Numbered from the stretch's first letter, positions 36,001 through 56,050 are shown. The stretch is DNA of 64,000 bases from Candidatus Omnitrophota bacterium (GCA_040753435.1 JBFMEN010000052.1:129-64128); one strand, 5' to 3'. The notes: generated from the letters alone by a model not told the origin. A program made the numbers and translations.

Positions 36001-39000
36001 GAGATAAACATCAGGGTCGGAATGAAAAAGAACATTCTGACCGTAGAGTTCTCGGATAACCGCAAGAAGGTTTCTTATATTGATCCGAAATGCATGTTTT
36101 TGCAGAGATCCATGGGGCGCGGGCGAGGGACGGGCTTTGGTATTTTTGCCCTTCGACGGATCGTTGAGGGCGTGCTCGGAACCATGAGCATCGAAAACAG
36201 GGGCGTGACGACCAAGTTTATCGTCAGTCTTCCGGTAAGCGCGCAGCCGGCCGTTCTCGGGCTGCCGTTGTCGAAACAGTCGGGCACTTACATGTTAAGC
36301 GGCGAAGATGCCCCGGTCAAGAAGGCGCTGGCCCGATACCTGTCCGGAGCGCTCGGTTTAAGGTATATCAACGCACGCTTCCTTGAAGAGGCGGTCATTT
36401 ATGTTCTGATCGAAGAATTGCTTTTGCCGGAAATAAAGAAGGCCGGAATCAGCATGGATAATGAAAACGCGATTGATGCGTTTATTACAGAGAAAATCAA
36501 CGAGATCGAAGATTTTGTCTCCGCTTATTTGAGAGAAGACGGTGTCGACTATAGCAGGGAACCGTTAAGGATCAAAATTCATGGAGAATACCGAAATAGT
36601 GAGGGGTTGTATCTGTCCGGAGTGTTGAAAGACGTCATTAAGGAATCTTACCGGCAGGATTCCGGAAGGAAAGTCATATTTGAAAGGGTCGTTCGAATGC
36701 CGTTCTTTAAGACATTGCTGGAAACATTTATGGTTGACGGGGGCGGGAAGATCCTTGAAAACGGAGGATTTAACGGGATCATTCTGCTCAACGGTGCGGT
36801 CATCGGAAACGGAGATCTTTTGGCCAAAAAAGAAAGCGGGGCGATCCGGTTACGCGTTGACGGTGAAAAGAAGAAAGGAACAGTCTCAAGGAAATTGACG
36901 GTCTGGGACGGGAATGAAACCGGAGTCTTTGCAGAAATTGATTTGAACGCGAAGAACAGAGAAAAGATCGCGGAGGCTGTTATTCATGCCCGGCAAAAAA
37001 TGGACGGGGCCATGCTGACGGGATTGCAGGAGAAGAGAGATGCGCAACCGGACAAGTCGACGGCGGCAATTTCTTCCGGTATTTCCGGTTCGCTTAAAGA
37101 TCAGGTGATTTTGGCTAATGGCGACAGGGCCATGATTGCCGAAGGTAACGATCCGGTATTTTCGCAGATTTTGACACCTTTTGAAAAAGAGAATGATGTC
37201 ATCGTTCCAAATGTTAAAACAGGACCTGCAATCAAGCTGATTTATCAAGTGGATCATATGACTATTTCCGGGATCGTAGGGTTGTCCGAAACCAGAGAGA
37301 CTACCGGAGATTTCTTGCTCATGTCCGGGACCACGGCGGTGCGTGAAACCAGGAAGCTTGCCAGAGATTCCTTCATGCCTTTTAATCGCAAGCTGGATCT
37401 CTGGACATATGCCCCTATCGGTCTCAACCCCGTTGGCAGATACAGGAACCGGGGCATCAGTGAGACATTTTTAGCCTGGCTGTCGTTGTTGGCGTTGAGA
37501 CAAGGCTTTGATGAAATTTCCTGCCGCACCAGAGGGGTTCATAACGCCTACGTCTTCCGGAAATTCTTTGCAGATAAAGTTGTCTTTCCGTCGGGTAAAA
37601 TAATTGACATGAAGTTTTTCCCCTATGCCCTGACCAAGGCTGATAACTCCCTGCTATGGAATAAAGATGCGTTTGAGTTTTTCGGTCGACCCAGGATACC
37701 TGCGAATGTTCATATGGCATGGGCTGATTACGCGATGATTGGTTCACAAAGAACAAATTTACCGTCGACCGATTTCCGAAAGTTCCTTCTTTCCCCCGCC
37801 ATCGAGACGCCTGTGCCGGATCAGGCTACGGTGAAAAACTTATCAGACAGCGAGCCGCGATCGGAATCCTCTTCCCGGGATAATGCTGTTCTTGGCGATG
37901 CAGAAGATGATACTGAGCCGAAATATTCTTTTGGCATCACAACCAGAGGCCCGGGAGTGAGACTGGCGGTCCCGGGCGCGCCTTATAACAGGACGGAAAA
38001 ACTTGCGGATTCGGCGATGGTTACGGAAAACACGAAGCCTTTTGTAAATGATTATGTTAATGAGGAAGGGATCCGCGACGATATTGATCGGGTTATATCT
38101 GCCCTGGACGGCCTTCTGCTCAGGGATTTCTGTTCGGACTGCATGAGGAAAAAGATGCTCGCCCTGCTTGATTATCGTGGTCCCGGGGCGAATCTCGTGC
38201 GTAAGGCCGTACGGCAGGCCGTGTATTCAGCAGCCGCGTCTCTGCAAAACGGGAAACAAACAAAGGCGTCGAAAATACTCGGGATTTCAGGCGAGATATC
38301 AGGTCTTTATGAGGTCGTTATCAAGCGCGGGACGACACTGGAAGGGATTTATTTAGGGGAACTCTCGGATGTGAACGGAATCATCCGGGTGGGCGGCGTG
38401 GCGGTCAAAGAATTCGACGCGATCAGCAATAATACGGTCTTTGAATTTAAGTTCCACCTGACCCTCAGAAAACTGTACCAGCAGGTTTTCGGAATCGATT
38501 CCGCCGGCGCGTCTCATTTAAAGATTATCCGCAAGGCCGGACGGTTCCATAACATCAGAAACATTGTTTATTTCGGCGAAGTGGACTACGGGTTTGTGTC
38601 CAGGGCGATCCATGCGTTCCTGGTGAACAGGCGTCATCTCTTGCCGCGCGTTAACATTGTGAACAAGGGGTTGTCGGTAAAGTTTTCGTTAAACGAAATT
38701 AATGACTTTTTAACGAGCGAAGACGTCCTGAAACTGGTTAATGAAGAATCACGGGCCCAGGGAGCCCGCCATTATCTCGGCGACGTGATCCGGGAAAGAA
38801 AGAATATTATTACAAGGGGGATTCGAAGATTTCAGAAGGAGTTGCCGGCGTCAGCGAAGTTCGATGTAATCATCGCGATGAGTAATGCGCCGAAAGATGT
38901 TTTGAAAGATATTTCGAAACTGAAGCAAAAAACGAAGAGGCGCGATCATGCCATGTTAGTCAGGGCGACCGGCGGCGATGGATTCATGAAAACTTTTGCG

Positions 39001-41649: not shown

Positions 41650-41890
41650 TGATTGGTCCGGGGGGGGGGTATGTTTATGGTGGTGAAAAAATTTAATGTA
41701 GAGACGTCTTGGCGGGATGTCTCCAGGCAAGAGGGTAATGGCGTCGTCGATGCAGAGATGACCCGGCGGGTCATCTCAAACGGCAATGAGTCGGTTCTTC
41801 CGACGGAGACGTCTCATCGGGACGGGGCACAGGAGATTGCTGGAAGGGAGACGTTGGGCAGGAGGAGTCTGAAACGGAACTTCAGTTGAT
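41650..41890. repeat. Palindrome-rich intergenic repeat element, copy 1, containing a G10 homopolymer at 41660-41669
   Basis: gatgattggtccgggg...gagacgtct/agacgtctc inverted repeats...atgacccggcgggtcatctcaaacggcaatgagtcggttcttccgacggagacgtctcatcgggacggggcac.ggagattgctggaagggagacg. The same string (about 90% identical) recurs at 55812-56050. Confidence 0.85.
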
Positions 41891-41976: not shown

Positions 41977-42039
41977 ATGATTAAGAAGCCGAATTTGAAA
42001 GGGCATGGCAAGGTTGAATCTTTATTAACATTATTTTAA
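41977..42039 (+). CDS. Small ORF (20 aa, MIKKPNLKGHGKVESLLTLF) with a strong RBS in the AT-rich leader of the paralog operon. It may be a leader peptide or spurious
   Basis: ggagg sits 8 nt upstream of ATG at 41977. The ORF lies in the 600-nt intergenic/promoter region before 42238. Confidence 0.2.
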   Translation: MIKKPNLKGHGKVESLLTLF

Positions 42040-42237
42040 CTAAATTTGTTATAAACATATGATTTTATTATATTTATATATTTTATTAAATTTGCCAATT
42101 TGTTCTATATCTTTTATACTTATATCAGAGAAAAAAAGAAATCTCCCGCTCTATTTCTTTCAATTCAAATCTGATTTTTATATATTTTGCGACTTGGGAA
42201 AGTTTATTTCTTACTATAAGAAGACGAGGAGAAACTA

Positions 42238-45200
42238 ATGAGACACCCTAAAAAGGCAAACACCTATAATTTTTTCCAACGGTTAGTTTCTGGTTTTTTA
42301 GTTTTTGTATTTAGCTTGGGAGTAACATTTCCTCCCGATATCGCTCGAGCTCAAATATTACCGGACCTTTTGTCGCCAGGAATGATGGTCTCTCAAAGCT
42401 CCGGTTATGCCCCTGTTTTAATCAAAGGCATTACCGTCCATCCTGAGAATCCGTTAGCGTTTGATTTTATTATAGATACAGGCGATTCTGGCATTGAACT
42501 TAAAAGTCAGAGGTTCAGGCAGGAATCCTTGCGTCTGGTGAAATACTTTTTGGCGTCGTTAACTGTTCCGGCTAATGAGCTTTGGGTTAACTTGTCTCCT
42601 TATGAAGAAGATCGAGTGATTCCCCAGTCTTTCGGACTGACAGAAATGGGCATCGATTTGCTGGCGCAAGATTATATGTTGAAGCAGTTGACAGCGAGTC
42701 TGACGTATCCGGAAGATGAACTCGGAAAGAAATTCTGGAAAAGGGTTTATGAGCGCGCTTATAAAGAGTTAGGAACAACTTCCGTACCTTTCGACAATTT
42801 TCATAAAGTTTGGATTGTGCCTCAGGAAGCACTGGTCTATCAGAAAGACAATCAAGCATTTGTTGTTCGTAACAAATTAAAAGTGATGATGGAGGAGGAT
42901 TATTACGCGTTTCGACGGGCGCATGGTTATGGGTATGATATAGAGAAAAAATCAGCAGAATCTGACAACAGGTTGACCAGACTTCAAGCTAAAGTGATGA
43001 GGGAAATCATCCTTCCTGAAATCGAGAAAGAGGTTAATGAGGGAAAGAACTTCGCTCAACTTCGTCAGATTTTTCAAAGCATGATTTTAGCCACCTGGTT
43101 TAAGAAGAATCTTAAGGAAAGTCTTCTCGGACAGGTATATGCGGATCAGAAAAAAGTTAAGGGTGTGGATGTTGACGATCCGCAAGTTAAAGAAGAAATC
43201 TACCGGCAGTATGTGAAGGCTTTTGAACACGGTGTTTATAACTATATTAAAGAAGATTATGATCCGAATTTTCAAAAGATTGTTCCTCGTCACTATTTTT
43301 CTGGAGGGGCTTATGGTGGGAACATGCCTGCTGTACAGCAAACAGTTTATGCCGGAACAAGGCAGGACACCGCAGCATTACGTAATGAAGTTGCTGATGT
43401 TATAGAGGGTGATGGCAAGATTGGTGATGCTTCTATTGTTTTAGCGGAAACAAAGAACGAGGCTGCCTCCATAGAGGAAAAGGCAAAGAAGTTTGCAGGC
43501 CAGGGTGATGCGGCGATGCTTTCGGAGTATAAACCGGTGGTCGTTGCCTTTGGCGGTCCTGACGGCGTATTGTTTGAGTATGACCGATGGCACAAGACAT
43601 CTTTCGAAGATGCGGTCACTTTTAACAAGTTTTTGCAACTGCTTAATAAAGGGGTTGATGTTGTTATTATCAGCGATCAACGTTATTTTGATTGGATGAA
43701 AATTCCCGATGAGGTTTTGGAGTACAAGTTGGTTGAATTAGTCAATAAAAAGAAACCTGAATTAGGCAAAGCTTTAAGCGCCCAAGGGTGGAACTTTAGT
43801 GATTCCCAAGCGTCGGAAGTGATCACAATAATAAACAACAACGAAAAAGATTTTTTGAATAGCTTGAAAGATTGGGGGGATCAGTCTAAAAAAATCCTTG
43901 AAATGGATCTGCGTCCTAACTTTGTTGAGTTGGTTCGAAAGAAGAATCCTGATCTGTTAACGAATCTTGTGGGGGAGAAAGGACTGAAAGCTCGACTTGT
44001 TGAGCCCCTGCGAAAAGCGGCACCAGGCGCATTACAAAATTTAACGGTATATGCGTCAGCAGGAACTTTTAAAATAACTTTTGATGAAAACGGTGAGGAA
44101 ATAGAGGATCGTTCTTATAATATCCGCAACTCTATGGATTCCCGAAGCGCCGAAAAGATAAAACAAGCTATTGAAGCTATTGTGAAGGAAGTGTATTGGA
44201 GCGATTATCAGAAGCGGCCTCATGATTACCGTGAGGCTTATCCTGCTTATACCTTTGAAGGGTATGAACCCCAGGTTGTCCTGCACAAGAATGGTGATTA
44301 TGTTCAGGGGTTGACTGTCTTGTATTTACCTTCAGCTTTACTTGGAGCTCATAATCCATCAGAAAATAAGGGCATAGGAGATATTAGGAAAAAAGTTTTT
44401 GAAGTTATTAAGGAGAGGCTTTCTAAAGAGATTCATCCGTATATATGGGCCCATGGGCAATATACTCAAAATATGCGCGGGATGGTTTCCATTGATCTCC
44501 GACGCAGGAACACCGGGAAGGATTTTGCTCTTCGGGAGTACATGATGGAAAAAGGGGTTCTACCATCACAGATAATATCCTTCTGGAGTTTGGATGAGTA
44601 TTCGGGTGATCAGCCAATGAGCTATGTTGAAGAGATTACTCGATTTATCAATTCAAAAAGACAGGGGGATGAATTTTTTAAATCGCTGGGGATAGGGTTA
44701 GGCGGTATTTACTACTGGCTTCATTTTCTTTTACAGAAACATCTTGGAAGTGTTAGCGAGATAGTGACCGCTTATAATGAAGAAACAGCCCGGCACCCAT
44801 CGTTAGTAGGAGCTAAAAAATATATTGAAGAGAGCAAAAATGGACAAAAGTTCCCAAGAGAAACAGAAGATGCCATAGAGAATCTTTATGAGATTTATCG
44901 AAGTTTTGCGTTGACATTTTCTGAGGCGCCTGCGCCCTGGACGGCTATTTATACAGAAGCCTTCGAATTATCTGATAAAGTGAAAGACGCATTGAATGAA
45001 TTTAGTGATGTGTTTTATAAAGTTGAGAGTGTTGAAAGTTTGTTCAAAGAGGCGGATATAATTTTTTACAAGAGGGATGTTGATTTTAAGACGTTTTACC
45101 AAGGGGTTGATCCTCGAGCCGCGCGAAACATTAATACCTTGCTAAAGGCCTATAACGGCGACGAAGAAAGACTTAAGAATGATGTGATAGCGGCTGCAAA

Positions 45201-47196
45201 TTCGATGAATATTAGTATAGCTAGGGTCTTGAGCGGCTACTATCAGGATCGGTACGTTTTTCGGTACAAAACTCCATTATTTGAAACGCTTAAATCAAGA
45301 GCGCCTCCGGTGGATTCGAAAGTTGTTTATTTAGGTGGTGGCGGTGTGGCCACGACAACTCTTCTTCAAAAATTTATGGAAAAAAAATTCAAAGAACTCG
45401 CCTGTATTATTTCTTCTTCTGATGATGGTGGATCTTCCAAAGACATTATGATGAGTTTGTTTAAGAGATTCGGATTTTATTTTATTCCCCCAGGGGATGA
45501 CGCAGGATTGAACATCTTTTTATCGAATGATAATTTTAAAATTTTTACACTATTCTGGTTGGAATCACAAGGAAAAGATCTTCCGGACGAGGTCTTAATT
45601 AGTGCCCAAAAGAAAGACCTCGGGAAATTTCGTATAACTGCGGATTCCATCTATCCGGCATGGAGAGAAAGAGTTTTAAAGGAACTGGAAGCATTGCGCG
45701 ATCCAGCGAAGAAACAAGAGATTGAGAAAGCACTGGCAAAGTCTTTGGGACTTGGTGAAATTAATATTGATTATAAGAGTCAACGCCACCTGGTATTTTT
45801 GACAAGTCTGCTGTCTTTGGGCGATCTTGTAGATCGAGACTTGGTTACCCCCGGGATTGTTGGTTTGAATAATGCCTCGACAGCGAATCTGCTGATGATA
45901 GGTGATGCATACGATTCCAGGGTTATTCGTGAAGGAATGCCGGTTGATAAAGATTCCAGACAGTTTCTTCTTCATCAAATGTTAGAGCTAGGAGATGCTC
46001 AGCCTGTTCCTGTAAGTTATGATTATGAGCGTAGCGCGTTGATTGCTTTTGATAAAGGCGGAGAGGTTCTTGAAACAACTCAGACCAGGATTACTGATAA
46101 GGCGCATAATAAGCTTACCCATGATCTTTATTTTTCTCATCGGACAGCAGAAGAGCGAATGAAGCGGTTTGATTCTTCAGATGATCAATCTTATCCCAAA
46201 GCAGCTCAAAAGGCTGTTGAGATTATCCAAAATTCAGAAATGCTGGTTTCAGGGAATGGATCATTGTGGACATCTTTGATGCCGGTTTTGATGTATAAGG
46301 ATGTGGCGCAGGCAGTACTTGATAAACGCGCAGAAGGAGCGCCTGTAGTGTTTATTGCGAAGATCAAGAGTGATTTGGAGACGGCCGCCATCAAAATGAA
46401 CGATTCAGGGGAAGCAGAGGTTTTGGAGCGAGATGGAAAATTAGTTCTTAATTTAGAGCAGATGAATCTTGTTGAGCAGCTGAAGGCCGTAGTTCGTCAT
46501 ATAAGACGTTCGGTCGGCAGGGATGATATTGAGCTTAAAGATGTTTTTTCCCATGCCATTATTGCGAATCTAAGCAAGGAGGCGATTCGGATTTTGAAAG
46601 AGAAAGAGAGTTTGACAGAAAAAGAGATTGGTGCCTTAAGAGAAGGTGGTGCCCAGGTAAGCAAGCTCCTGAAAGGGATTCAGCCTGTAGTTACTCAGGA
46701 AGAAAAAGAATATGTAATGAATCAGGGGTTGAAGATTATAGAAATCAGCGATAAGGATATCACTGGGATTGAAAAAGGGAAACCCTTGTATGATAACGAT
46801 AATTTATACGAGGTGTTAAAGAGTATTAAGCCTGAGGTCTTTGCTGATTCTGCCATGTTGACAAAAGAATCGTTACAGGTGACACCGGTAAAGGCCGGAG
46901 ATCAAAAAGCAGTAAAAACAGGGGGAGAGCAAGTCGGCGGTATTGATCTTAATCCGGACTATCTAGATCTTAGGATTAAGCGCGATGGAAATGGCGTGCC
47001 GCTTCCCATGTCTCAGCAATCTATTGAGCAACTGCGCCAGATCGATGGATTTCTGCCTGTGATTATTAATGTGACTCCGATCCAGAATTTTCCGATGGCG
47101 CTGGGTCTTGATGTGAGTTCTGAAAATGAGGATGGGACGACCAATAATCGTTTAAGCCATCTGGATGTCTTTGATAAGATGGCAAGGTTGAATTGA
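42238..47196 (+). CDS. Secreted modular paralog 1 (1652 aa): signal peptide, shared N-terminal domain, CofD/YvcK-like (UPF0052) core, shared C-terminal module
   Basis: RBS aggag is followed by ATG 42238. The N-terminal hydrophobic signal is LVSGFLVFVFSLGVTFPPDIARAQ. About 360 aa are homologous to the N-termini of the next two genes. VVYLGGGGVATTTLLQKF...LACIISSSDDGGSSKDIM...FIPPGDDAGLNIFLS (about 45320-45530) matches the YvcK/CofD GGGTG, DDGGSSG and PPGD motifs. The C-terminal module is GGIDLNPDYL...LPVIINVTPIQNFP. Confidence 0.9.
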   Translation: MRHPKKANTYNFFQRLVSGFLVFVFSLGVTFPPDIARAQILPDLLSPGMMVSQSSGYAPVLIKGITVHPENPLAFDFIIDTGDSGIELKSQRFRQESLRLVKYFLASLTVPANELWVNLSPYEEDRVIPQSFGLTEMGIDLLAQDYMLKQLTASLTYPEDELGKKFWKRVYERAYKELGTTSVPFDNFHKVWIVPQEALVYQKDNQAFVVRNKLKVMMEEDYYAFRRAHGYGYDIEKKSAESDNRLTRLQAKVMREIILPEIEKEVNEGKNFAQLRQIFQSMILATWFKKNLKESLLGQVYADQKKVKGVDVDDPQVKEEIYRQYVKAFEHGVYNYIKEDYDPNFQKIVPRHYFSGGAYGGNMPAVQQTVYAGTRQDTAALRNEVADVIEGDGKIGDASIVLAETKNEAASIEEKAKKFAGQGDAAMLSEYKPVVVAFGGPDGVLFEYDRWHKTSFEDAVTFNKFLQLLNKGVDVVIISDQRYFDWMKIPDEVLEYKLVELVNKKKPELGKALSAQGWNFSDSQASEVITIINNNEKDFLNSLKDWGDQSKKILEMDLRPNFVELVRKKNPDLLTNLVGEKGLKARLVEPLRKAAPGALQNLTVYASAGTFKITFDENGEEIEDRSYNIRNSMDSRSAEKIKQAIEAIVKEVYWSDYQKRPHDYREAYPAYTFEGYEPQVVLHKNGDYVQGLTVLYLPSALLGAHNPSENKGIGDIRKKVFEVIKERLSKEIHPYIWAHGQYTQNMRGMVSIDLRRRNTGKDFALREYMMEKGVLPSQIISFWSLDEYSGDQPMSYVEEITRFINSKRQGDEFFKSLGIGLGGIYYWLHFLLQKHLGSVSEIVTAYNEETARHPSLVGAKKYIEESKNGQKFPRETEDAIENLYEIYRSFALTFSEAPAPWTAIYTEAFELSDKVKDALNEFSDVFYKVESVESLFKEADIIFYKRDVDFKTFYQGVDPRAARNINTLLKAYNGDEERLKNDVIAAANSMNISIARVLSGYYQDRYVFRYKTPLFETLKSRAPPVDSKVVYLGGGGVATTTLLQKFMEKKFKELACIISSSDDGGSSKDIMMSLFKRFGFYFIPPGDDAGLNIFLSNDNFKIFTLFWLESQGKDLPDEVLISAQKKDLGKFRITADSIYPAWRERVLKELEALRDPAKKQEIEKALAKSLGLGEINIDYKSQRHLVFLTSLLSLGDLVDRDLVTPGIVGLNNASTANLLMIGDAYDSRVIREGMPVDKDSRQFLLHQMLELGDAQPVPVSYDYERSALIAFDKGGEVLETTQTRITDKAHNKLTHDLYFSHRTAEERMKRFDSSDDQSYPKAAQKAVEIIQNSEMLVSGNGSLWTSLMPVLMYKDVAQAVLDKRAEGAPVVFIAKIKSDLETAAIKMNDSGEAEVLERDGKLVLNLEQMNLVEQLKAVVRHIRRSVGRDDIELKDVFSHAIIANLSKEAIRILKEKESLTEKEIGALREGGAQVSKLLKGIQPVVTQEEKEYVMNQGLKIIEISDKDITGIEKGKPLYDNDNLYEVLKSIKPEVFADSAMLTKESLQVTPVKAGDQKAVKTGGEQVGGIDLNPDYLDLRIKRDGNGVPLPMSQQSIEQLRQIDGFLPVIINVTPIQNFPMALGLDVSSENEDGTTNNRLSHLDVFDKMARLN

Positions 47197-47286
47197 TTCA
47201 ATCTTTACTGGTATAGGGTAAAAAAGCGTTTTTAATTTAAATGATTCATTAAGAACACCAAAAACATTTTAGGGAGAATCTGTCTT

Positions 47287-49881
47287 ATGACATACAGAAG
47301 AACGAGAGCCTATAGGTTATTGTCAATGTGTTTAAGTTTGATCTTGGCGTTGTCCTTTTCGGTTCCGGTTCAGGCTCAAGGCACATTTTTAACCGGGCTC
47401 AATTTACCTGCTATCGGGACAAAAGTTGTTCCAAGTGCGGCTTATCATCCGCCACTTATGGCCGGAATGACAATTTATCCCGAAGATCCCTTGAAATTTG
47501 ACTTCATCGTCACAACGGGAGATGACAATCTGGAAGGAGAGGCGTTTAAGAAGGAGGCGCAGCGGTTGATTAACTATTTTCTGGCCACATTGACTGTCCC
47601 CGACGATGAAATGTGGGTTAATCTTTCTCCGTATGAAAAAGACCGCATTATTGCAGATGGTTTGGGGACGACGGAGATGGGTCGTGACATGCTCGTTCAA
47701 GACTATATATTGAAACAGCTGACTGCGTCATTAATGTATCCTGAAGAGGAATTAGGAGAAAAATTTTGGAAAAGGGTCTATGAAAAAACAAAGTCAAGAT
47801 TTGGCGCTACGGAAATTTCTGCGAACACCTTCAACAAAGTTTGGATTGTTCCGGAGGAAGCTGTTGTTTATGTGAATGGGGCGAATGTTTTTGTCAATAA
47901 AAGCCATCTTAAAGTAATGCTGGAGGAGGACTATTTGGCTCTGGAAAGCAATCAAGAGAGCACACGCCATGGCTTGGGACAGATGACAAAGGACGATATT
48001 GAGGCTATAAGTCAGGACGCCAAGGAAATCCTTAAGGAAATAATTCTTCCTGAAATAGAACGGGAGGTTAATGAGGGTAAAAATTTTGCAAACCTCCGCC
48101 AGATTTATTATTCAATGATATTGGCGACATGGTACAAGAAGAATTTAAAAAAGAGCATTCTGGGCAAGGTATACATTGATAAGAACAAGATTGACGGTAT
48201 CGATCTTGACGATAAAGACGTTAAAGAAAAAATCTATGATAGATATATCCAGGCGTTCAAGCAAGGTGTTTACAATTATATTAAAGAAGACTTTGATGAA
48301 AGGACACAGGAAGTGGTTCCAAGAAGATATTTTTCCGGCGGCCTCAGGGGACAAAAAGATGTTGTTGCGGGTAAAGATTTATCATCAACCGCTGAAATCT
48401 CCCGTGCGCAAAGAGGAGAAATTGGTGCCAGGAAAGTGGCGTTTAACGCAGAGTTAAAAAATCATGACGCAGCTATGTTAACCGATACAGTCATTCCCGC
48501 GGAGATGAAAGATGCCATGGTACGGGAGGGCGGCAAGGCCATACGAAATTTCCTTGGAGGGCTTGTTCCCTATGTTGGTAATCGTGAGAGTTCTCCTTTT
48601 GCTGATATCGCTAAAGTTGAGCCTTTATGGGAGGCGGCGCAAAAGTTTGAAGCCAATCCAGACAATTTTACGGATGAAAAGTTGATTCAAGAGAAGACGG
48701 GAATCCCCCGCATTGAATTGAGGGATTTGAACCCTGAAACAGGGGAAGTCGCGCAGGTCGCGATTATAGGTATTCCTGGGAATTACCGATCGGTTCCTCT
48801 GGAAGGCTTTCAATCAATCGATCAGGCAGATTCGTTGTCAATCAGAATGGGCGGTTTTATGACGCTTGAAGCGAATGTAGGAGGTGTCAATAAATCGTTA
48901 CCTTTAAACTATCTTGCCCAGCATTTCAATGAAATTCTTGACATGTTGGGATATACCCCGGGAACATATATTGATGCGCGTGCCACGCGAACAGTTATTG
49001 CAACGGACGGCGACGGGACATTATATGGCAAGCCAACGGCAACAGAAAATCCGATTTTAAATGATAGCGCTGCTTATGATAATTTAATGGAATATTTAAG
49101 GGTTGGCGGGTTTTATGTCTTAACATCAGGGAATGACATTCAATTGACAAGAGAAAGACTCCTGGCCGGCAGGGGGATACCTGTTGAAGTGCGAAACAGG
49201 TTTCTTATCGTTGGAAATGGCGGTGCGAATATGGGTTATTTAAATGCGAATGGCGATCTCGTCGAGATAGATCAATATAAACGTCAGTCATTGTTAGAAA
49301 ACAGTGCGGATGAAATTACGGATTTGGATGTCGTTTATGTGGGAGATGATGAAAAGCTGGCTGGTAATGATATGCCCGGGTTTAGAAAAGTCGGCCTGAG
49401 CCAGGCAATCAGCGTCTCCTCAAAAGATTTCCAGAATAATCCTGTGGAACTGCGCAAAAATTATATTGGTAATATGGAGCAAGGGACGAGTGCTTTATTT
49501 GGCGCAATTATTGCCCGGGTTAAACAGTCACCGTTTACGCCTCTTTTTGAGGAAAAGACGCTTCAATCAATTATCTTAAAAGCCCGGGAATCTTTTTCGA
49601 ACACGATTTACGACTCGGCTATGTTAGGGGAAGGATCATTGGCTGACCGTTCTGCCAAGAACGGCGGTATTGATTTTAATTCCAATAATATGAGACTTGA
49701 TGAAGTAGGGGATGAAATTGATTTTCAACTTGATGAAACAAGTTTAAAAAATATCGATGTGAATACCATTGAAGGGATCATTCCTATGATCATCAACATT
49801 ACGCCGATCGTTGATTTTTTCCCTCTTTTGAGTCGTGCAGAGGGGATAGTGGATGACCCGCAGTTGTCTGCGCGGAATTAA
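47287..49881 (+). CDS. Secreted modular paralog 2 (864 aa): signal peptide, shared N-terminal domain, HAD-superfamily phosphatase-like core, shared C-terminal module
   Basis: Signal peptide LLSMCLSLILALSFSVPVQAQG. The N-terminal domain is colinear with paralogs 1 and 3. HAD motif I is VIATDGDGTLYG (about 49005), motif II is YVLTSGN and motif IV is VVYVGDDEKLAGNDMPGF (about 49341). The C-terminal module is GGIDFNSNNMRLD...IIPMIINITPIVDFFP. Confidence 0.9.
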   Translation: MTYRRTRAYRLLSMCLSLILALSFSVPVQAQGTFLTGLNLPAIGTKVVPSAAYHPPLMAGMTIYPEDPLKFDFIVTTGDDNLEGEAFKKEAQRLINYFLATLTVPDDEMWVNLSPYEKDRIIADGLGTTEMGRDMLVQDYILKQLTASLMYPEEELGEKFWKRVYEKTKSRFGATEISANTFNKVWIVPEEAVVYVNGANVFVNKSHLKVMLEEDYLALESNQESTRHGLGQMTKDDIEAISQDAKEILKEIILPEIEREVNEGKNFANLRQIYYSMILATWYKKNLKKSILGKVYIDKNKIDGIDLDDKDVKEKIYDRYIQAFKQGVYNYIKEDFDERTQEVVPRRYFSGGLRGQKDVVAGKDLSSTAEISRAQRGEIGARKVAFNAELKNHDAAMLTDTVIPAEMKDAMVREGGKAIRNFLGGLVPYVGNRESSPFADIAKVEPLWEAAQKFEANPDNFTDEKLIQEKTGIPRIELRDLNPETGEVAQVAIIGIPGNYRSVPLEGFQSIDQADSLSIRMGGFMTLEANVGGVNKSLPLNYLAQHFNEILDMLGYTPGTYIDARATRTVIATDGDGTLYGKPTATENPILNDSAAYDNLMEYLRVGGFYVLTSGNDIQLTRERLLAGRGIPVEVRNRFLIVGNGGANMGYLNANGDLVEIDQYKRQSLLENSADEITDLDVVYVGDDEKLAGNDMPGFRKVGLSQAISVSSKDFQNNPVELRKNYIGNMEQGTSALFGAIIARVKQSPFTPLFEEKTLQSIILKARESFSNTIYDSAMLGEGSLADRSAKNGGIDFNSNNMRLDEVGDEIDFQLDETSLKNIDVNTIEGIIPMIINITPIVDFFPLLSRAEGIVDDPQLSARN

Positions 49882-49886
49882 ACACT

Positions 49887-52800
49887 ATGAAAAATCCCAA
49901 ATCAACAATTTACCGCGTAGTTTCTGCTTGTTTAATCGTTATTCTGGCAGTGACGCTTTCTGTCCCAGCTCAGGCTCAGAGCGCGCTTACCCCAAGCGTC
50001 ATCGAAGGGCTTAATCTGCCTGCTCCAGGGACAATGATTTCATTAAGTAGTGCCTACAACCCCCCTATAATCAAAGGCATCACCATTTATCCCGATAATC
50101 CATTGAAGTTTGATTTTATTGTTTCTCCTGGTGATGACAATCTTAAGGGTGATGCATTGAAGAAAGAAGCGGACAAGCTCATTAAATACTTTATGGCGTC
50201 TTTAACTGTTCCGGCCGATGAAATGTGGGTGAATCTTTCGCCGTATGAAAAAGATCGCATTATCGCAGATGGATTAAGCCAAACAGAATTAGGGCGGGAT
50301 TTGCTGGCCCAGGATTATATTCTCAAGCAGGTCACCGCTTCTTTAATGTATCCAGAAGAAAAGCTGGGAGATGATTTTTGGAAAATGGTTTACGCGAAAG
50401 CACAGGTTCAATTTGGCACGACGGAAATACCGGTGAACACATTTAATAAGGTTTGGATTGTTCCGGAGAAGGCGAATGTCTACGTTCATGGCAATAATAT
50501 TTTTGTTGTCGATAGCTATCTAAAAGTCATGTTGGAAGAGGATTACTTGGCATTAGAAACGAATTTGAAGCATGCTAATCATGGCGTGGGAATAATTCCT
50601 AAAGACCAAATAGAAGAAACCAGTGATGTATCTAGACAAGTCATTCGGGAAATCTTAATTCCAGAAATTGAGAAAGAAGTGAATCAGGGGAAGAATTTCG
50701 CAAGCCTAAGACAAATATTTAATTCTATGATCCTGGCGACTTGGTATAAGAAGAATCTGAAAGAAAGTTTGCTCGGACAGGTTTATGTGAATCAGAATAA
50801 AGTTGAGGGCGTTGACTTGAAGGATAAACAAGTTAAAGAAAAGATTTACAATCAATATGTGAAAGCGCTTGAAAAAGGGGTATTTGATTTTATCAGAGAG
50901 GATGATGACCCAATTGCGCAGGAAAGAATCCCGAGGAGATATTTTTCTGGTGGAATTCAAGGAGCTGATAATGTAGGGGAAAGGATTATGTCTTATGCGG
51001 AAATAGAAAAGGTTTTTGTTGGGGATGAAGCGCTGATTACTGTTGAACTAAGAAATCCTAAAAATCCAAGTGAAAGATTGGTTGATACCGGCGCAACAAT
51101 GAAGAAGCTGTGGACGAAAATAAAAAAAATAAGCGTTAGTGACAACGACAGATGGTTTTTGAGAGACGGAAATTTATCTCATTGGGAACAAATTATTGAT
51201 GGTCAGGTTGAGTTTGATAAAGAAAAAATGGTTATAACTTTTAGCGTAGGAAACAATAAAGGAGAAACTCAGAGAATAAGCGTAAAGGTTAAAAAAGTTG
51301 TTAGTAAAAATGAGATTGTCAAAGGTGCACATCTAGAAGCTGGAGCGCTTAGGTTTCTGGGCGTGGCTGATTGGTATGATACTAAATTTCAGGGAGAAAC
51401 AGTTTTGCTGGAAGAAAATCCTTATAATATCAACTATATTTCTACAGATAGCATAATTGGCGTCTCAGAATTTTTATTTCAAAACGAGCCTTCTTCGATC
51501 GCTTATCCTATCATTGAAACAGCAATAAAAAGCGATCGAAAGTTTTTTGCCCAAGCTGCAAATCGGAGCGGTGATGAAGTTCGCGGCTGGATATCGAAAG
51601 CCCTTGGGTATTTCCCTTTTCAATCGTTGGATTGGGAAAGTGTACCCAAACAGTTTCTTGCTAAAGCATTAGCCAGAAATGAATTAACCAGATATGAAAA
51701 CATTCTAAGACTCGAAGATGTCTTATTCGCCGGCCAAATCGATGTCAATGAAAAGACAAATTCGAATGCAAAAGCGTTGTTTAGCTTAAATCCAGTACGA
51801 CGCTTAAGAGCATATATGGCGCTTAAACAAACGAATGACTTGGAAGAAGCAAAGCTATTGAAGGAAATGTATCCAAGGGCGAGTATTGCTATGAAAAAAT
51901 TAGTTCGTTTTTTATTCTATTGGGTTACCAGAGAGGAAGCGATGGTTACAGGCGAATATTACGGAATAACAAGGAAAGGAAACAGTCGGCTGAAAGATAC
52001 GAAGGAAAGATTGGATCAGTTATTGCCGACCTTGTTGGAACGATTTCCGAATGAAGTATTGAGGATACGTGATGAAGGTGTATCAACAGGAACTCTTTCT
52101 GAAAATCTTTTTCGTCATGTCGCCTCAAAGACAAAAGAATTTAAATATATTGCTACTGATTTGGTTACAAAGTTGATTTATATTACGAATTCAGAAAAGG
52201 GATATACGGCCGTTTTTACCGATGAACAAGATGGCCATACGGATAATTTTATTCAGATTAAACAGGGTAACCGAATTTATACTCCTCAAGGAGTAAATAG
52301 AGTTGTTCGTGTTCTGGGGGAAGACGCTGCGTCGTTTACCGCAGAGGTTCGGAGTGCGTTTGAAATGTATAAACAAGAAGGTGGATTATCAGATAAGTAT
52401 GTGACTGAAGAAGTTGGGCTTTTTGATTTTGAAGTCGAAAAATTAGCAAAGACTGATGAGCGCTTTGAGTTGTCTCAACATAACATCTTCCAAAAAGTGC
52501 CGACTCAAGAGCAGGGGCATTTAACAATACTTTCAAATGTATTAGTTCCTACTTATTATAGCCAGAGTGAATTAGTTGAGGGTATTAAGTCTGCGGGGTT
52601 AAATACGGTCGAAGGTGGTTTGGTGTTGGTCATTAATGAATCATATCTTGGAACTGGTCTTGGACCTGTATCAGACGGTATTTATGTTCATCCTTTTTCA
52701 GTTTTTGAAAGAAGAGGAAATCAGCTAGTTCGCCTATTTTTTTCTTCGATAGGACCACAAAAAGGATTTAATCGCGCCATGAAGGCTGAGGACATAGAAA

Positions 52801-53036
52801 GTGTAAACTTGGGAGACAGGGAGGTTATTAGTAGTGACGTTGGAGGCATTGACTTAAATTCTAACAATTTAGAACTAAATGTTCAGGGTGATGAGGTAAA
52901 GATGAGCCCTTATCCCGGAATTTTAAATGAAATTTCCGTTAATGGATTTGTTCCCGTTATCATTGATGTCGCTCCAATTTCAAACGTTCCAATATTACTT
53001 GGTATTCAATCAGTTGAAACCACCGGCGTTAGATAA
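49887..53036 (+). CDS. Secreted modular paralog 3 (1049 aa): signal peptide, shared N-terminal domain, divergent middle with a methyltransferase-like motif, shared C-terminal module
   Basis: It starts 5 nt after the stop of the previous gene (translational coupling). Signal peptide VVSACLIVILAVTLSVPAQAQS. The N-terminal domain is conserved (ITIYPDNPLKFDFIVSPGDDNLKGDALKKEADKLIKYFMASLTVPADEMWVNLSPYEKDRIIADGL...). VLRIRDEGVSTGTLSENLF...KYIATDL (about 52060-52170) resembles SAM-MTase motifs I and II. The C-terminal module is GGIDLNSNNLELN...FVPVIIDVAPISNVP. Confidence 0.9.
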   Translation: MKNPKSTIYRVVSACLIVILAVTLSVPAQAQSALTPSVIEGLNLPAPGTMISLSSAYNPPIIKGITIYPDNPLKFDFIVSPGDDNLKGDALKKEADKLIKYFMASLTVPADEMWVNLSPYEKDRIIADGLSQTELGRDLLAQDYILKQVTASLMYPEEKLGDDFWKMVYAKAQVQFGTTEIPVNTFNKVWIVPEKANVYVHGNNIFVVDSYLKVMLEEDYLALETNLKHANHGVGIIPKDQIEETSDVSRQVIREILIPEIEKEVNQGKNFASLRQIFNSMILATWYKKNLKESLLGQVYVNQNKVEGVDLKDKQVKEKIYNQYVKALEKGVFDFIREDDDPIAQERIPRRYFSGGIQGADNVGERIMSYAEIEKVFVGDEALITVELRNPKNPSERLVDTGATMKKLWTKIKKISVSDNDRWFLRDGNLSHWEQIIDGQVEFDKEKMVITFSVGNNKGETQRISVKVKKVVSKNEIVKGAHLEAGALRFLGVADWYDTKFQGETVLLEENPYNINYISTDSIIGVSEFLFQNEPSSIAYPIIETAIKSDRKFFAQAANRSGDEVRGWISKALGYFPFQSLDWESVPKQFLAKALARNELTRYENILRLEDVLFAGQIDVNEKTNSNAKALFSLNPVRRLRAYMALKQTNDLEEAKLLKEMYPRASIAMKKLVRFLFYWVTREEAMVTGEYYGITRKGNSRLKDTKERLDQLLPTLLERFPNEVLRIRDEGVSTGTLSENLFRHVASKTKEFKYIATDLVTKLIYITNSEKGYTAVFTDEQDGHTDNFIQIKQGNRIYTPQGVNRVVRVLGEDAASFTAEVRSAFEMYKQEGGLSDKYVTEEVGLFDFEVEKLAKTDERFELSQHNIFQKVPTQEQGHLTILSNVLVPTYYSQSELVEGIKSAGLNTVEGGLVLVINESYLGTGLGPVSDGIYVHPFSVFERRGNQLVRLFFSSIGPQKGFNRAMKAEDIESVNLGDREVISSDVGGIDLNSNNLELNVQGDEVKMSPYPGILNEISVNGFVPVIIDVAPISNVPILLGIQSVETTGVR

Positions 53037-54493: not shown

Positions 54494-55048
54494 ATGAAAA
54501 ATGGGTTCACATTATTAGAGCTGGTTATTGTCGTCATCATTATCGGGGTATTGGCCTCGCTGGCCTTGCCGCGGATGGTTTCAATGATTGAGGGATCGCG
54601 TTCTGCGGAGGCGATTTCAGCGCTGACGTCAATTCGCAGCGCGTTGGAGCGGTATTACCTGATGCATCCGGGTGAGGAGGTCTTTGCATCTTCAGACCAG
54701 ACGGAGACTTTTGAAATGCTGGGACTGGATGATCCCGGATCTTCACCCGGGTCGAATTTTGGTTACCTGGCAAGTATTAGTATGATAGGCGGTGAAGCGT
54801 CTTTTTTTTCTGCGGCAGTGCGTAATTATAACAATAATGGCAGTCCTTATAGTGGGGCACTTTTATTGGAAAATATTAATTTTATTTATTTGGGAGTCAA
54901 TGAGACAATGATCGCCTTGTGCGGGTTTGGAAATTTCAGATCGGTTAGCAGCAAAGATTATTGTGATGTTCCGGAGAATTTGGTGGGACTCGGGTTTGGA
55001 ACCGTCTCAACGATCACTGCGCTCGGATATCTTGCCACGAATATGTAG
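54494..55048 (+). CDS. Type IV pilin / pseudopilin-like protein (prepilin-type N-terminal cleavage/methylation domain)
   Basis: N-terminus MKNGFTLLELVIVVIIIGVLASLALP. It has the G|FTLLE class III signal with Glu+5 and a hydrophobic alpha1 helix. The C-terminal Cys pair (LCGFG...DYCDV) is typical of the pilin D-region. Confidence 0.85.
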   Translation: MKNGFTLLELVIVVIIIGVLASLALPRMVSMIEGSRSAEAISALTSIRSALERYYLMHPGEEVFASSDQTETFEMLGLDDPGSSPGSNFGYLASISMIGGEASFFSAAVRNYNNNGSPYSGALLLENINFIYLGVNETMIALCGFGNFRSVSSKDYCDVPENLVGLGFGTVSTITALGYLATNM

Positions 55049-55840: not shown

Positions 55841-56050
55841 GTTGTACGGAGACATCCCCTGCCGGCAGGCGGGCCAGCCTACCGGCAGGCGACGGGACGT
55901 CTTCAGGCAAGAGGGCAATGGCGTCGATGTAGAGATGACCCGGCGGGTCATCTCAAACGGCAATGAGTCGGTTCTTCCGACGGAGACGTCTCATCGTGAC
56001 GGGGCACGGGAGATTGCTGGAAGGGAGACGTCCCATCGGGACGTCTCTAC
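55812..56050. repeat. Palindrome-rich intergenic repeat element, copy 2 (direct orientation relative to copy 1)
   Basis: gatgattggtccgggg...caagagggcaatggcgtcg...atgacccggcgggtcatctcaaacggcaatgagtcggttcttccgacggagacgtctcatcgtgacggggcacgggagattgctggaagggagacgtcccatcgggacgtctc. It contains several gacgtc-centred palindromes. Confidence 0.85.

Follow-up and report, generated by a model that had tools for sequence, protein, structure and literature searches.

Polymorphic toxin systems such as Rhs, CdiA and MafB place a variable toxin at the extreme C-terminus of the protein, with the immunity gene immediately downstream. In the MARTX toxins of Vibrio and its relatives, which carry glycine-rich RTX repeats at both ends, a cysteine protease domain (CPD) that autoprocesses the linkers and a type I secretion signal, conserved ends flank a central array of effectors that is exchanged between strains, and cutting of the linkers after Leu releases those effectors in the target cytosol. 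T9SS cargo combines an N-terminal Sec signal with a folded beta-sandwich CTD of 70-100 aa, and the cargo itself is of extracellular type and lacks a conserved N-domain; the CTD is represented by the models TIGR04183 and TIGR04131, and T9SS is a system of the Bacteroidota/FCB group that is not known from Omnitrophota. Cellulosomal enzymes are secreted and carry a short terminal dockerin, by which they dock onto receptors of a very large scaffold. Giant proteins of the dockerin type also exist in Omnitrophota. Members of this phylum have been proposed to be host-dependent or predatory, and their giant proteins bear signal peptides and have a multi-enzyme metabolic content (PMC10066038; bioRxiv 10.1101/2023.11.21.568195; bioRxiv 10.64898/2026.06.07.730766). 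These giants, which have been named 'Archaeovorins', include the 'multi-enzyme metabolic clusters' that form class 1 of Nielsen & Lui (2026) (see also West-Roberts et al., 2023); the threshold of the catalogue is >=10,000 aa, and many TM helices are usual.

The three proteins described here, P1-P3, belong to a very large Omnitrophota-specific family whose conserved N-terminal domain (N-domain) and C-terminal peptide (C-module) are described in neither giant-protein preprint. They are encoded in a 64,000-nt stretch of DNA (GCA_040753435.1, JBFMEN010000052.1:129-64128; the window) by three + strand ORFs, exactly where the original prediction had placed them, and are annotated by NCBI in a Candidatus Omnitrophota MAG. 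P1 (42238..47196; 1652 aa; MEW5895390.1), as delimited by its ORF and by paralog alignment, consists of a signal peptide, the N-domain, a payload of ~1200 aa with a CofD/YvcK-like domain, and the C-module. The same order of parts is found in P2 (47287..49881; 864 aa; MEW5895391.1), where the payload is an orphan with HAD-like motifs, and in P3 (49887..53036; 1049 aa; MEW5895392.1), where it is a 630-aa orphan. P1 and P2 are separated by 90 nt, the stop codon of P2 and the start of P3 by 5 nt, and P3 is followed by 365 nt and then by a gene for an HMGL-like enzyme; it is plausible that the three genes form one operon. An AT-rich region upstream of P1 (42030..42237, + strand) is the probable promoter of the unit, judging from its sequence: a GAGGAG Shine-Dalgarno precedes P1, and the sigma-70-like hexamers at 42036-42120 are consensus matches only, whose number is not above shuffled expectation. 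The block was predicted to be AT-richer than its flanks, and this is what we find, with a GC of 0.39-0.43 and GC3 of 0.34-0.42 against 0.47-0.49 and 0.50-0.56 in neighbouring genes. Stretches at GC 0.42-0.44 also occur in the giant ORF upstream. The 64-kb window contains no secretion or translocation machinery linked to the family, the sole nearby candidate being a pilin-like gene 1.5 kb downstream.

The N-domain, which bears out the predicted N-terminal module shared by all three proteins, is alignable over ~312 aa with 56-66% identity and ends at YFSGG (aa 357, 352 and 356). By paralog alignment it spans aa 46-357 of P1 (42373..43308, +), aa 41-352 of P2 (47407..48342, +) and aa 45-356 of P3 (50019..50954, +). 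The AlphaFold2 (AF2) model of the P2 N-domain (window 47377-48480) is confident (pLDDT 78.4, pTM 0.75) and shows a single alpha/beta domain, for which no match was found in the PDB or BFVD. Neither the N-domain nor the C-module matches Pfam or NCBIfam, which agrees with the original statement that the conserved modules correspond to no nameable domain. A profile of the N-domain retrieves thousands of relatives at E<1e-30, so that the resemblance among P1-P3 is far beyond chance. At 50% identity the family forms 8,398 clusters. Throughout the best 150 of these, with proteins of 420-5312 aa, the N-domain occurs only once per protein and begins at roughly residue 1-20.

Ahead of the N-domain, each protein has the predicted layout of a Sec signal peptide with an AxA-type site: K/R residues are followed by ~18 uncharged residues and then by ARA, VQA or AQA and a Q. 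Judged by eye from sequence and from simple leader statistics, the putative signal peptides comprise aa 1-38 of P1 (42238..42351, +; predicted cleavage between ARA and Q), aa 1-30 of P2 (+; VQA and Q) and aa 1-28/30 of P3 (+). Across the family, 102 of 108 N-domain ORFs begin with K/R, continue with an uncharged stretch of ~18 residues and finish the leader with a PPxYAQ/AQAQ-type end, and in none is a lipobox positioned after the hydrophobic region. Since the positive charges precede the hydrophobic stretch, the downstream part is expected to be placed outside the cytoplasm.

At the other end, the predicted shared C-terminal module is likewise present in all three proteins as a module of ~55 aa (GGID...PVIINVTP...LLG) beginning at GGID. 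It lies at aa 1567-1623 of P1 (46936..47106, +; GGIDLNPDYLDLRIKRDGNGVPLP...GFLPVIINVTPIQNFPMALG, then a 29-aa acidic tail), aa 793-849 of P2 (49663..49833, +) and aa 986-1039 of P3 (52842..53003, +). Its consensus, GGI[DN]...G[FL]xPVIINxTPxxxxPxLLG, is proline-rich and hydrophobic, with one RDGNG-like turn only, and a short acidic tail comes after it. Modelled alone by AF2, the C-module has a core pLDDT of 70-83 with a pTM of 0.25, almost no secondary structure and no strands of >=3 residues, the pattern expected of a peptide whose folding depends on a partner. In ~28 of 70 members the Kyte-Doolittle 19-mer mean of the segment GFxPVIINxTPxxNLPLLLG rises to 1.6-2.0, and the C-module could therefore be membrane-associated. 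This hydrophobicity, and the extended peptide in need of a partner, fit an arrangement in which the Sec-exported enzymes stay with the producer for its own use, either periplasmic or surface-exposed within a 'coat', and are tethered through the N-domain and the hydrophobic C-terminal peptide or polymerised head to tail; there they would process host metabolites with no cell entry. The evidence of export and of conserved ends serves such an envelope-tethered display of enzymes as well as it serves delivery elsewhere; paralogs in tandem arrays, common in the family (three each in L014, L041, L045 and L071), are what would be expected for parts of one assembly, and a surface coat with giant surface proteins has been proposed for Velamenicoccus (PMC10066038). 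We nevertheless think this explanation rather unlikely: no anchor motif of known type (lipobox, LPXTG, PEP-CTERM or beta-barrel) was found, and the payloads, discussed below, fit it poorly.

The pattern of constant ends and variable cargo, predicted from three genes, holds well beyond them. At least 579 copies of the family are present in GTDB species genomes, all of them Omnitrophota. N-domain and C-module occur together in 70 complete ORFs from other Omnitrophota genomes and in 4 more that are frameshift-split; only 3 closed N-domain ORFs lack the C-module, ~95% of complete members end in it, and ORFs with the C-module only are all 5'-truncated or split. About 10 further ORFs exceed 3,700 aa and run to the ends of their loci. 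P1-P3 and 70/70 complete relatives all have the conserved C-module as their final ~55-90 aa and an internal variable part. Payloads of the 70 complete members range from 253 to 3268 aa, and payload homology of any kind is seen in only 25 of 2,211 member pairs. Two pairs of proteins show the exchange of payloads: in L006/L074 the ends are 84% and 85% identical, and in L019/L029, from the same MAG, 74% and 73%, with payloads that in both cases give no BLAST match even at E<=1. N- and C-module identities co-vary (Mantel r 0.34; the highest value among 1000 permutations was 0.22). The shared modules thus match no housekeeping family and the cargo does vary across homologues, the two points on which the original prediction could have failed.

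That prediction went on to compare the arrangement with polymorphic effector or toxin families. In a classical system of this kind, a constant trafficking region delivers variable toxins against competitors and immunity proteins protect the producer, and the constant ends, the extreme diversity of the payloads and their clear exchange between near-identical ends would all suit it, as would a few possibly harmful payloads (a DRAT-like ADP-ribosyltransferase, NUDIX and several peptidases). We consider it very improbable indeed, because the C-terminus is conserved and the variable part internal; because the suggested search for adjacent immunity-like small ORFs found none in the 90-, 5- and 365-nt gaps after P1, P2 and P3; and because the scan of 114 payloads, one weak DRAT-like match (E 1.6e-6) aside, turned up no toxin family, their most frequent Pfam matches being complete housekeeping enzymes with no nuclease, deaminase or pore-forming family. 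Rhs, RHS-repeat, haemagglutinin, PT-TG and other pre-toxin modules were not found in P1-P3 either. The toxin reading is therefore not borne out, and it is possible that P1-P3 are effectors of another kind.

For the payloads of P1-P3 themselves, only one of the labels originally given was confirmed. The P1 payload matches Pfam PF01933 (E 3.3e-13, aa 1302-1397, 49.9 bits against a cut-off of 30), covering only profile positions 147-236 of 290, with LGGGGV, DDGGSS and PPGD upstream, and it matches PDB 2q7x (E 1.3e-10, aa 1316-1481). TIGR01826 (YvcK; E 5.8e-14, 52 bits) and TIGR01819 (CofD; 15 bits) score below their cut-offs of 196 and 257. By these sequence comparisons the domain is a divergent member of the CofD/YvcK superfamily, running from LGGGGV at aa 1032 through SDDGGSS (aa 1061) and IPPGDD (aa 1083) to ~aa 1480 (45331..46700, +, end approximate) with a ~200-aa insertion. 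The HAD-like label of P2 fares less well: its motifs (DGDGT, LTSGN and GDDxxxxGND) are indeed present, read from the sequence as ATDGDGTL at aa 572, LTSGND at aa 612 and VGDDEKLAGND at aa 685 (49000..49371, +), but the payload has no match in Pfam, NCBIfam or the PDB at E<=0.1-10. The methyltransferase proposed for P3 finds no support, as the payload has no match in Pfam, NCBIfam or the PDB, and 'IRDEGVSTG' bears only a loose resemblance to the GxGxG-type motif I. Both the P2 and the P3 payload are sequence orphans, with no homologues in a search of 5.8 billion proteins.

Elsewhere in the family the payload is either a single complete domain, enzymatic or regulatory, or a series of such domains joined by linkers with a D-x-A-M-[LIVM] motif, and the Pfam scan of 114 payloads returned mostly metabolic and regulatory families of cytoplasmic type. 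In L026 a full-length PGK is followed by a full-length enolase that is 44% identical to a canonical Omnitrophota enolase, and L076 carries malate synthase, FBA and isocitrate lyase. Further domains include TIM, FBPase, GDH, AlaDH, PGM/PMM, UDPGP, RmlD, CofD, NUDIX, radical SAM with a B12-binding domain, PPDK and ROK, as well as PP2C, SNF2/DEAD helicases, response regulators, HATPase, a J domain, HEAT and ankyrin repeats. The 114 include none of the typical extracellular enzymes, such as glycoside hydrolases, nucleases or lipases. This content counts against the display of enzymes in the envelope, since many payloads (the J domain, helicases, response regulators, radical SAM and ATP/NAD enzymes) need cofactors or partners found in cytoplasm. 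It could be taken to mean that there is no export at all, the hydrophobic stretch, N-domain and C-module being scaffolding tags that collect cytoplasmic enzymes in a membrane-associated complex or an internal compartment of the producer, or pro-domains of a polyprotein cut at DxAML. The fusion of consecutive pathway steps (PGK with enolase, isocitrate lyase with malate synthase) and the resemblance of the border motif to a processing site would agree with this, and predictions for giant relatives in the phylum have the chain crossing the membrane repeatedly, its helices alternating with cytoplasmic enzyme domains (bioRxiv 10.64898/2026.06.07.730766). In 17 of 70 members there is, moreover, one marginal hydrophobic segment in the payload, in some of them right after the N-domain, and in these the payload could return to the producer's cytoplasm. 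Retention in the cytoplasm is clearly improbable, however, in the light of the canonical n-h-c leaders described above, and of the other 53 of 70 members, P1-P3 included, which have no further TM-like segment. In L001, a canonical stand-alone enolase gene adjoins a family member, suggesting that the fused enzymes can be extra copies.

The border motif connects these proteins with their giant neighbour. In P1 it occurs as DAAML 67 aa past the N-domain (43507..43521, +) and as DSAML 30 aa ahead of the C-module (46846..46860, +), and in P2 as DAAML (48466..48480, +) and as DSAML 17 aa ahead of the C-module (49612..49626, +). Family ORFs contain the motif D-x-A-M-[LIVM] at a density of 7.2 per 10,000 residues, whereas the value for neighbouring ORFs outside the family is 0.4 (18-fold enrichment), and 76 copies are observed in the 70 complete members against 7.1 expected; in L026 the copies stand after the N-domain, at the PGK/enolase junction, after the enolase and before the C-module. 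Upstream of P1, a giant ORF of >13,880 aa that is open at the 5' end of the window (1..41643, +) contains 22 copies against 0.39 expected (57-fold), and neither N-domain nor C-module is present in its visible 13,880 aa. The shared motif suggests that small carriers and the giant multi-enzyme proteins of the phylum use a common processing or sorting machinery, and the giant ORF probably belongs to one biological system with P1-P3.

Taken together, the best explanation of these data, which we put forward tentatively and as falling a little short of probable, is that P1-P3 are Omnitrophota-specific, Sec-exported 'two-handle carrier' proteins, akin to the giant multi-enzyme proteins of the phylum, with a payload that is at work outside the cytoplasm of the producing cell. 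The predicted export and the head and tail recognised by sequence around an exchangeable payload point to a sorting or delivery route in suspected parasites. The N-domain and C-module would be handles for one common partner, which might be an envelope receptor, an outer-membrane device for export or translocation, or, for each handle, the other; if such a partner recognises both ends, then any insert between them would be routed to one destination outside the producer's cytoplasm. DxAML, the GG at ...YFSGG and the GG at GGID... are candidate processing sites at which the payload may be freed. Because these payloads depend on ATP, NAD, SAM, Fe-S clusters, Hsp70 or DNA, they would most likely act in the cytoplasm of another cell, host or prey, or in cytoplasm leaking from it, which the suspected parasites would exploit; the carriers may then be metabolic or regulatory effectors and not toxins. 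An awkward point for carriers of this kind is that Fe-S and cofactor enzymes, Sec-exported unfolded, would need maturation outside the cell. It is a bolder and distinctly doubtful step to propose that the N-domain and C-terminal peptide define a new Omnitrophota route for sorting or delivery, by which entire blocks of central metabolism and regulation are exported into or onto hosts and payloads are freed at DxAML-type linkers. If true, ultra-small host-dependent bacteria would export glycolytic, glyoxylate-shunt and sugar-nucleotide enzymes, chaperone co-factors and helicases, and the giant proteins of the phylum would be concatenated versions of the same principle.

How this family stands to the systems introduced above can be stated as follows. 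With T9SS cargo it shares a Sec signal, a short conserved C-terminal module on highly varied cargo, and numerous paralogs in each genome; it differs in that the C-module has no NCBIfam match, its AF2 model shows no beta-sandwich and a conserved N-domain is present, and no T9SS machinery genes (PorK/L/M/N, SprA) lie in the 64-kb window. Cellulosomal enzymes likewise join diverse catalytic parts to a short conserved terminal module, but the cargo here does not consist of CAZymes, the N-domain is additional, and P1-P3 show neither a match to dockerin PF00404 nor a duplicated Ca-binding F-hand. Polymorphic toxin systems resemble the family in that their trafficking parts are constant, their functional parts hypervariable and there are signs of cassette exchange; unlike them, P1-P3 have no C-terminal variable domain and no downstream immunity gene. 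The Omnitrophota giant proteins come from the same phylum and have an N-terminal signal peptide and several cytoplasm-type enzyme domains per polypeptide, with PGM/PMM, HAD, methyltransferase, HATPase, response regulator, NUDIX, HEAT, radical SAM, ROK and starch synthase among the Pfam families common to both; P1-P3 lie directly downstream of a giant ORF with which they share the DxAM[LIV] linker motif. Unlike the giants, family members measure 420-5312 aa (864-1652 aa in P1-P3), have no array of TM helices and are defined by the N-domain and C-terminal peptide. Finally, P1-P3 give no match to RTX/HemolysinCabind repeats, CPD (Peptidase_C80), C39 or other protease domains, and the carriers differ from MARTX toxins in their Sec signal peptide and metabolic-enzyme payloads and are unrelated to them in sequence or fold. 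In architecture only, however, conserved ends around an exchangeable centre make MARTX the closest analogy for a possible mode of action.

The three genes that the original prediction had read as a block of secreted paralogues with shared ends and different middles are P1 (42238-47196, 1652 aa, MEW5895390.1), P2 (47287-49881, 864 aa, MEW5895391.1) and P3 (49887-53036, 1049 aa, MEW5895392.1), all on the forward strand of a 74,257 bp contig from a Candidatus Omnitrophota MAG. NCBI names the first 'CofD family protein' and the other two hypothetical; each is a singleton at 90% identity. Our ORF calls, alignment, leader analysis, spacing and base composition confirm the block, and its architecture is genuine and not a product of chance. 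All three proteins open with a leader in which a basic n-region is followed by ~18 uncharged residues and then by ARA, VQA or AQA with Q next. The alignment delimits a conserved head module of ~312 aa (hereafter the N-domain; 57-66% identity among the paralogues) that ends at ...PR(R/H)YFSGG, and a final block of ~55 aa (the C-module) that runs from GGID(L/F)N through G(F/I)xP(V/M)II(N/D)(V/I)(T/A)PI and is followed by a 10-29-aa tail. The middles, or payloads, are unalignable with one another. P1 and P2 are separated by 90 nt containing the Shine-Dalgarno sequence AGGGAGA, and the gap between P2 and P3 measured 5 nt, just as had been claimed. The block is also AT-richer than its neighbours, with a GC content of 0.416, 0.429 and 0.388 for P1, P2 and P3 (GC3 0.39, 0.42 and 0.34) against 0.486 (GC3 0.52) for the giant ORF upstream of P1 and 0.465-0.486 (GC3 0.50-0.56) for the three genes downstream of P3. 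This 6.8-point deficit relative to the rest of the window is specific to the present locus, since members elsewhere (loci L003-L081) lie only ~1.4 points (median) below their own flanks. Horizontal transfer was rejected as the cause of the low GC on account of this small family-wide drop and because the GC of the giant ORF is itself heterogeneous.

The genes downstream of P3 are ordinary ones and encode an HMGL-like enzyme, a pilin-like protein, KDPG aldolase (Eda), MutL, MutS and a response regulator. The pilin-like gene (54494-55048, forward strand), 1.5 kb from P3, encodes a small protein that carries a prokaryotic N-terminal methylation motif and resembles a type IV pilin or pseudopilin. 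Two 94% identical copies of a 142-nt direct repeat follow the stop of the giant ORF (41713-41854) and the KDPG-aldolase gene (55893-56031), and by virtue of these positions the pair brackets a 14.2-kb block comprising P1-P3 and the HMGL-like, pilin-like and Eda genes. Within the repeat lie the palindrome GAGATGACCCGGCGGGTCATCTC and several others that resemble GAGACGTCTC, and its predicted fold has an energy of -69.9 kcal/mol (z -3.2). It has no Rfam match and no copy in 81 other loci, and an Rfam scan of the whole window returned no match. A run of ten G residues (CCGGGGGGGGGG, 41655-41668) lies 15 nt past the giant ORF stop codon, and the related GGTCCGGGG(T)7 is found at ~55820 near the second repeat copy; these may possibly be slippage-prone tracts or assembly artefacts. 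Another Omnitrophota locus (L009:9818-17874) is syntenic with the window: a member whose payload resembles that of P1 precedes one that resembles P2. The payload of the former, a protein of 2,169 aa, is 35% identical to that of P1 over ~990 aa, whereas its N-domain is closer to that of P2 (59% identity) than to that of P1 (50%), which hints at recombination between ends and payloads.

The family defined by leader, N-domain, payload and C-module extends far beyond these three genes and is restricted to Omnitrophota. A word-indexed search with a profile of the three N-domains returned 1,468 proteins, of which all the named ones belong to Candidatus Omnitrophota/Omnitrophica and none has a Pfam domain on the N-domain region. 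An HMMER scan of 1.84 billion representative proteins placed the N-domain in 8,398 clusters at 50% identity, of which 6,818 reach E<=1e-30. Throughout the best 150 clusters it is single-copy and starts within the first ~20 residues of proteins of 420-5,312 aa. Taking a single genome for each GTDB species, we confirmed at least 579 copies, every one of them in an Omnitrophota MAG, with up to five copies per MAG among the best 80 alone. Some of these MAGs are mislabelled 'uncultured Planctomycetales'. We called stop-to-stop ORFs in 79 loci and scanned them with HMMs of both modules. An N-domain is present in 113 ORFs. Complete ORFs, which carry the N-domain first and the C-module last, number 70; in four others a frameshift has left the C-module in the following ORF, and a closed ORF without a C-module was seen just three times. 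Wherever a C-module occurs without an N-domain, the ORF is a 5'-truncated or frameshift-split product. Pairing of the two ends is therefore nearly obligatory, and the 70 complete relatives with their diverse payloads show that the layout noted at first, constant ends with variable cargo, holds beyond the window. The sequence identities of N-domain and C-module also co-vary (Mantel r 0.34; the highest value among 1000 permutations was 0.22), and thus the two ends are inherited, or evolve, together. Same-strand tandem arrays like P1-P3 are common, with three members each in L014, L041, L045 and L071.

The signal-peptide layout is the same in 102 of 108 N-domain ORFs and the leader itself is conserved as ...YR(I/L)LSxF(I/V)AxTF(I/V)FSxVxPPxYAQ. 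A lipoprotein scaffold was ruled out, as no leader has a lipobox after the hydrophobic region. An arrangement in which the proteins are a scaffold or polyprotein that is not exported at all has to be set both against this leader and beside the cytoplasm-type payloads described below, and we regard it as unlikely.

Gene calls within the family need care. An apparent cargo-less subfamily of ~400-540-aa homologues was rejected, since it consists of contig-end fragments, frameshifted ORFs and one IS66 insertion. In the latter case (L082:10001-13752, and also L083) a member is broken after ~449 aa by an IS66-family element with TnpB_IS66 and a DDE transposase. Likewise, P0188, which looked like a J-domain protein that had a C-module but lacked a signal peptide, proved to be a truncated gene call: the ORF at L001:5319-8462 encodes 1,047 aa with the full architecture and a payload of ~90-aa repeats and a DnaJ J domain, of which the public annotation covers the last 153 aa only ('J domain-containing protein'). 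It illustrates how members of the family are systematically mis-called. On one long-read contig (L002:1-8348) a single member is spread over ~10 ORFs by frameshifts, in the order N-domain, PGI-like, nucleotidyltransferase-like, HEAT, PGM/PMM and, after further segments, C-module. In nine loci (L007, L011, L015, L020, L024, L030, L036, L042 and L052) N-domain-first ORFs starting from ~9,800 exceed 3,680 aa and reach the end of the analysed segment, so that some members of the family may be very long or even giant.

Neither constant module matches a Pfam or NCBIfam family. The AF2 model of the N-domain (65 sequences) has a mean pLDDT of 78.4, with a core above 90, and a pTM of 0.75; it predicts a mixed alpha/beta fold with two long beta-hairpins and several long helices. 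Foldseek returned no structural neighbour among 350,542 PDB chains (best E 0.28) or in BFVD (best E 0.057 at TM 0.11), and on the basis of this model the domain appears to be a new fold. Most of the residues that never vary in it are aromatic or charged (WVNLSPYE, QDYxLKQ, FNKVWIVP, EVNxGxxFAxLRQ, PRKYFSGG), with no obvious catalytic triad among them. The C-module has the family consensus GGI(D/N)(L/F)NPxxLDLQIKRDGNGVPLPxxxQPxxxMxIxGFxPVIINITPVxNLPLLLGL; a second subtype, which includes P2 and P3, is without the IKRDGNGVPLP stretch. Modelled alone (77 sequences) it has practically no secondary structure, a core pLDDT of 70-83 and a pTM of 0.25, as would a peptide that acquires its fold on binding a partner. 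In ~28 of 70 members the hydrophobic half of the module attains a Kyte-Doolittle 19-mer mean of 1.6-2.0, but it has three prolines inside. The linker string SSP(V/I/L) often precedes the module.

The payloads are extremely diverse. They range from 253 to 3,268 aa in the 70 complete members, and only 25 of 2,211 member pairs have homologous payloads at BLASTP E<1e-6. Direct evidence that payloads are exchanged between constant ends comes from members with closely similar ends and payloads with no BLAST match even at E<=1. ORFs L006_300 and L074_1278 are 84% identical in the N-domain and 85% in the C-module and carry payloads of 419 and 1,750 aa; the N-domains of L063 and L079 are 82% identical; and L019 and L029, from the same MAG, have ends that are 74% and 73% identical. 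Pfam scans of 114 payloads found enzymes of central metabolism (phosphoglycerate kinase at E 1e-107, enolase, class I fructose-bisphosphate aldolase, triosephosphate isomerase, FBPase, isocitrate lyase, malate synthase, glutamate and alanine dehydrogenases, PPDK), of sugar and sugar-nucleotide metabolism (PGM/PMM, UDP-glucose pyrophosphorylase, RmlD/epimerase, ROK kinase, starch synthase, CofD) and of other kinds (NUDIX, PP2C, metallophosphoesterase, radical SAM with a B12-binding domain, proline dehydrogenase, HAD (Hydrolase_3), methyltransferase, and M3, M20, M28 and M48 peptidases), together with SNF2 and DEAD helicases, response-regulator receivers, HATPase_c, DnaJ J domains, and HEAT and ankyrin repeats. 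One member (L026, 2,819 aa) has full-length PGK and then full-length enolase between its N-domain and C-module, the enolase being 44% identical to a canonical stand-alone Omnitrophota enzyme; another (L076, 3,031 aa) has malate synthase, FBA and isocitrate lyase. This is cytoplasm-type content, and 53 of the 70 payloads, including those of P1-P3, are without a TM-like segment. The cargo labels first given to the window genes stood in part. The CofD/YvcK-like assignment of P1 is supported (PF01933 at E 3.3e-13, above cut-off; PDB 2q7x at E 1.3e-10), that of P3 as a methyltransferase found no support, and the HAD-like label of P2 has motif strings as its basis; searches of both segments against the PDB at E<=10 gave noise only. 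In 5.8 billion proteins the P2 and P3 payloads retrieved only themselves and are thus sequence orphans. The architecture proposed for the block is right as to its layout, since constant ends with variable cargo occur phylum-wide, but wrong as to its being a toxin system. The frequent Pfam matches of the 114 payloads include no family of glycoside hydrolases, nucleases, deaminases or pore-forming toxins. Because three defining features of a classical polymorphic-toxin system were tested and none was found, we consider such a system highly improbable.

A further link is provided by a border motif, D-x-[AS]-M-[LIVM], which occurs at aa 424 and 1537 of P1 and aa 394 and 776 of P2, in each case once soon after the N-domain and once 17-30 aa before GGID. 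The 70 complete members have 76 copies where shuffling predicts 7.1, and family ORFs carry the motif 7.2 times per 10,000 residues, 18-fold more often than the non-family ORFs in the same loci (0.4). In the L026 protein the motifs coincide exactly with domain borders, falling behind the N-domain, at the PGK-enolase junction, behind enolase and ahead of the C-module. The motif is shared with the giant ORF (1-41643, forward strand; open at its 5' end, >13,880 aa), which ends 595 nt before P1, already reads ...ADQAMIV at the window start and has 22 copies of D-x-A-M-[LIVM], where 0.39 would be expected and 300 shuffles gave at most 3. An HMM scan found neither N-domain nor C-module in its visible part; its last 5,000 aa contain the cytoplasm-type domains LOG/SLOG, HATPase_c and 2H phosphoesterase, and it is of the Omnitrophota giant multi-enzyme type. 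We know of no description of the D-x-A-M-[LIVM] or SSP(V/I/L) linker strings.

Our tentative reading, to which we would give somewhat less than an even chance as a whole, is that the family proteins exit the cytoplasm through Sec and that the N-domain and C-module would be sorting or docking handles for one common partner. The border motifs and flanking GG pairs may be processing sites, and the payloads would act in a cytoplasm-like environment other than the producer's own, most plausibly that of a host or prey cell. The main rival shares the exported leader and the constant ends and holds that the payloads are displayed at the surface or in the periplasm for the cell's own use; this we judge rather doubtful.

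Omnitrophota are widespread uncultured nanobacteria whose giant multi-enzyme proteins with signal peptides pose the puzzle of where they go and why cytoplasmic enzymes should carry export signals. The present family makes this puzzle tractable, as it offers a 0.9-5 kb gene, two sharply defined constant modules, a border motif and thousands of variants. The N-domain, the C-terminal peptide and the DxAML sites are concrete handles for experiments on export, on the receptor or machinery and on processing, and the N-domain profile is a marker with which to catalogue the payloads exported across the phylum. Delivery of the payloads to hosts would make them a 'metabolic effector' arsenal of a new kind; retention on the producer would imply an unusual extracytoplasmic metabolism. 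Both modules deserve family definitions whichever reading is true.

The examined parts of the literature on giant Omnitrophota proteins (bioRxiv 10.1101/2023.11.21.568195; bioRxiv 10.64898/2026.06.07.730766; PMC10066038) ascribe signal peptides or TM helices to ~94% of these proteins, describe 'multi-enzyme metabolic' content drawn from the Pfam families also seen in the payloads here, frequent C39 peptidase domains and T2SS/T4P-like genes nearby, and propose predatory or host-dependent lifestyles. In those same parts we found neither constant module mentioned, nor the DxAML motif, nor a family of kilobase-sized carriers, and the family appears to be undescribed. The modules that define MARTX toxins, T9SS cargo, dockerin enzymes and polymorphic toxins set each of these systems apart from it. 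As to how it may work, the closest analogy is with MARTX toxins, which have constant ends, an exchangeable central array and linker processing. In kind, its closest relatives are the giant multi-enzyme proteins of the same phylum, and we regard the family as a variant of these.
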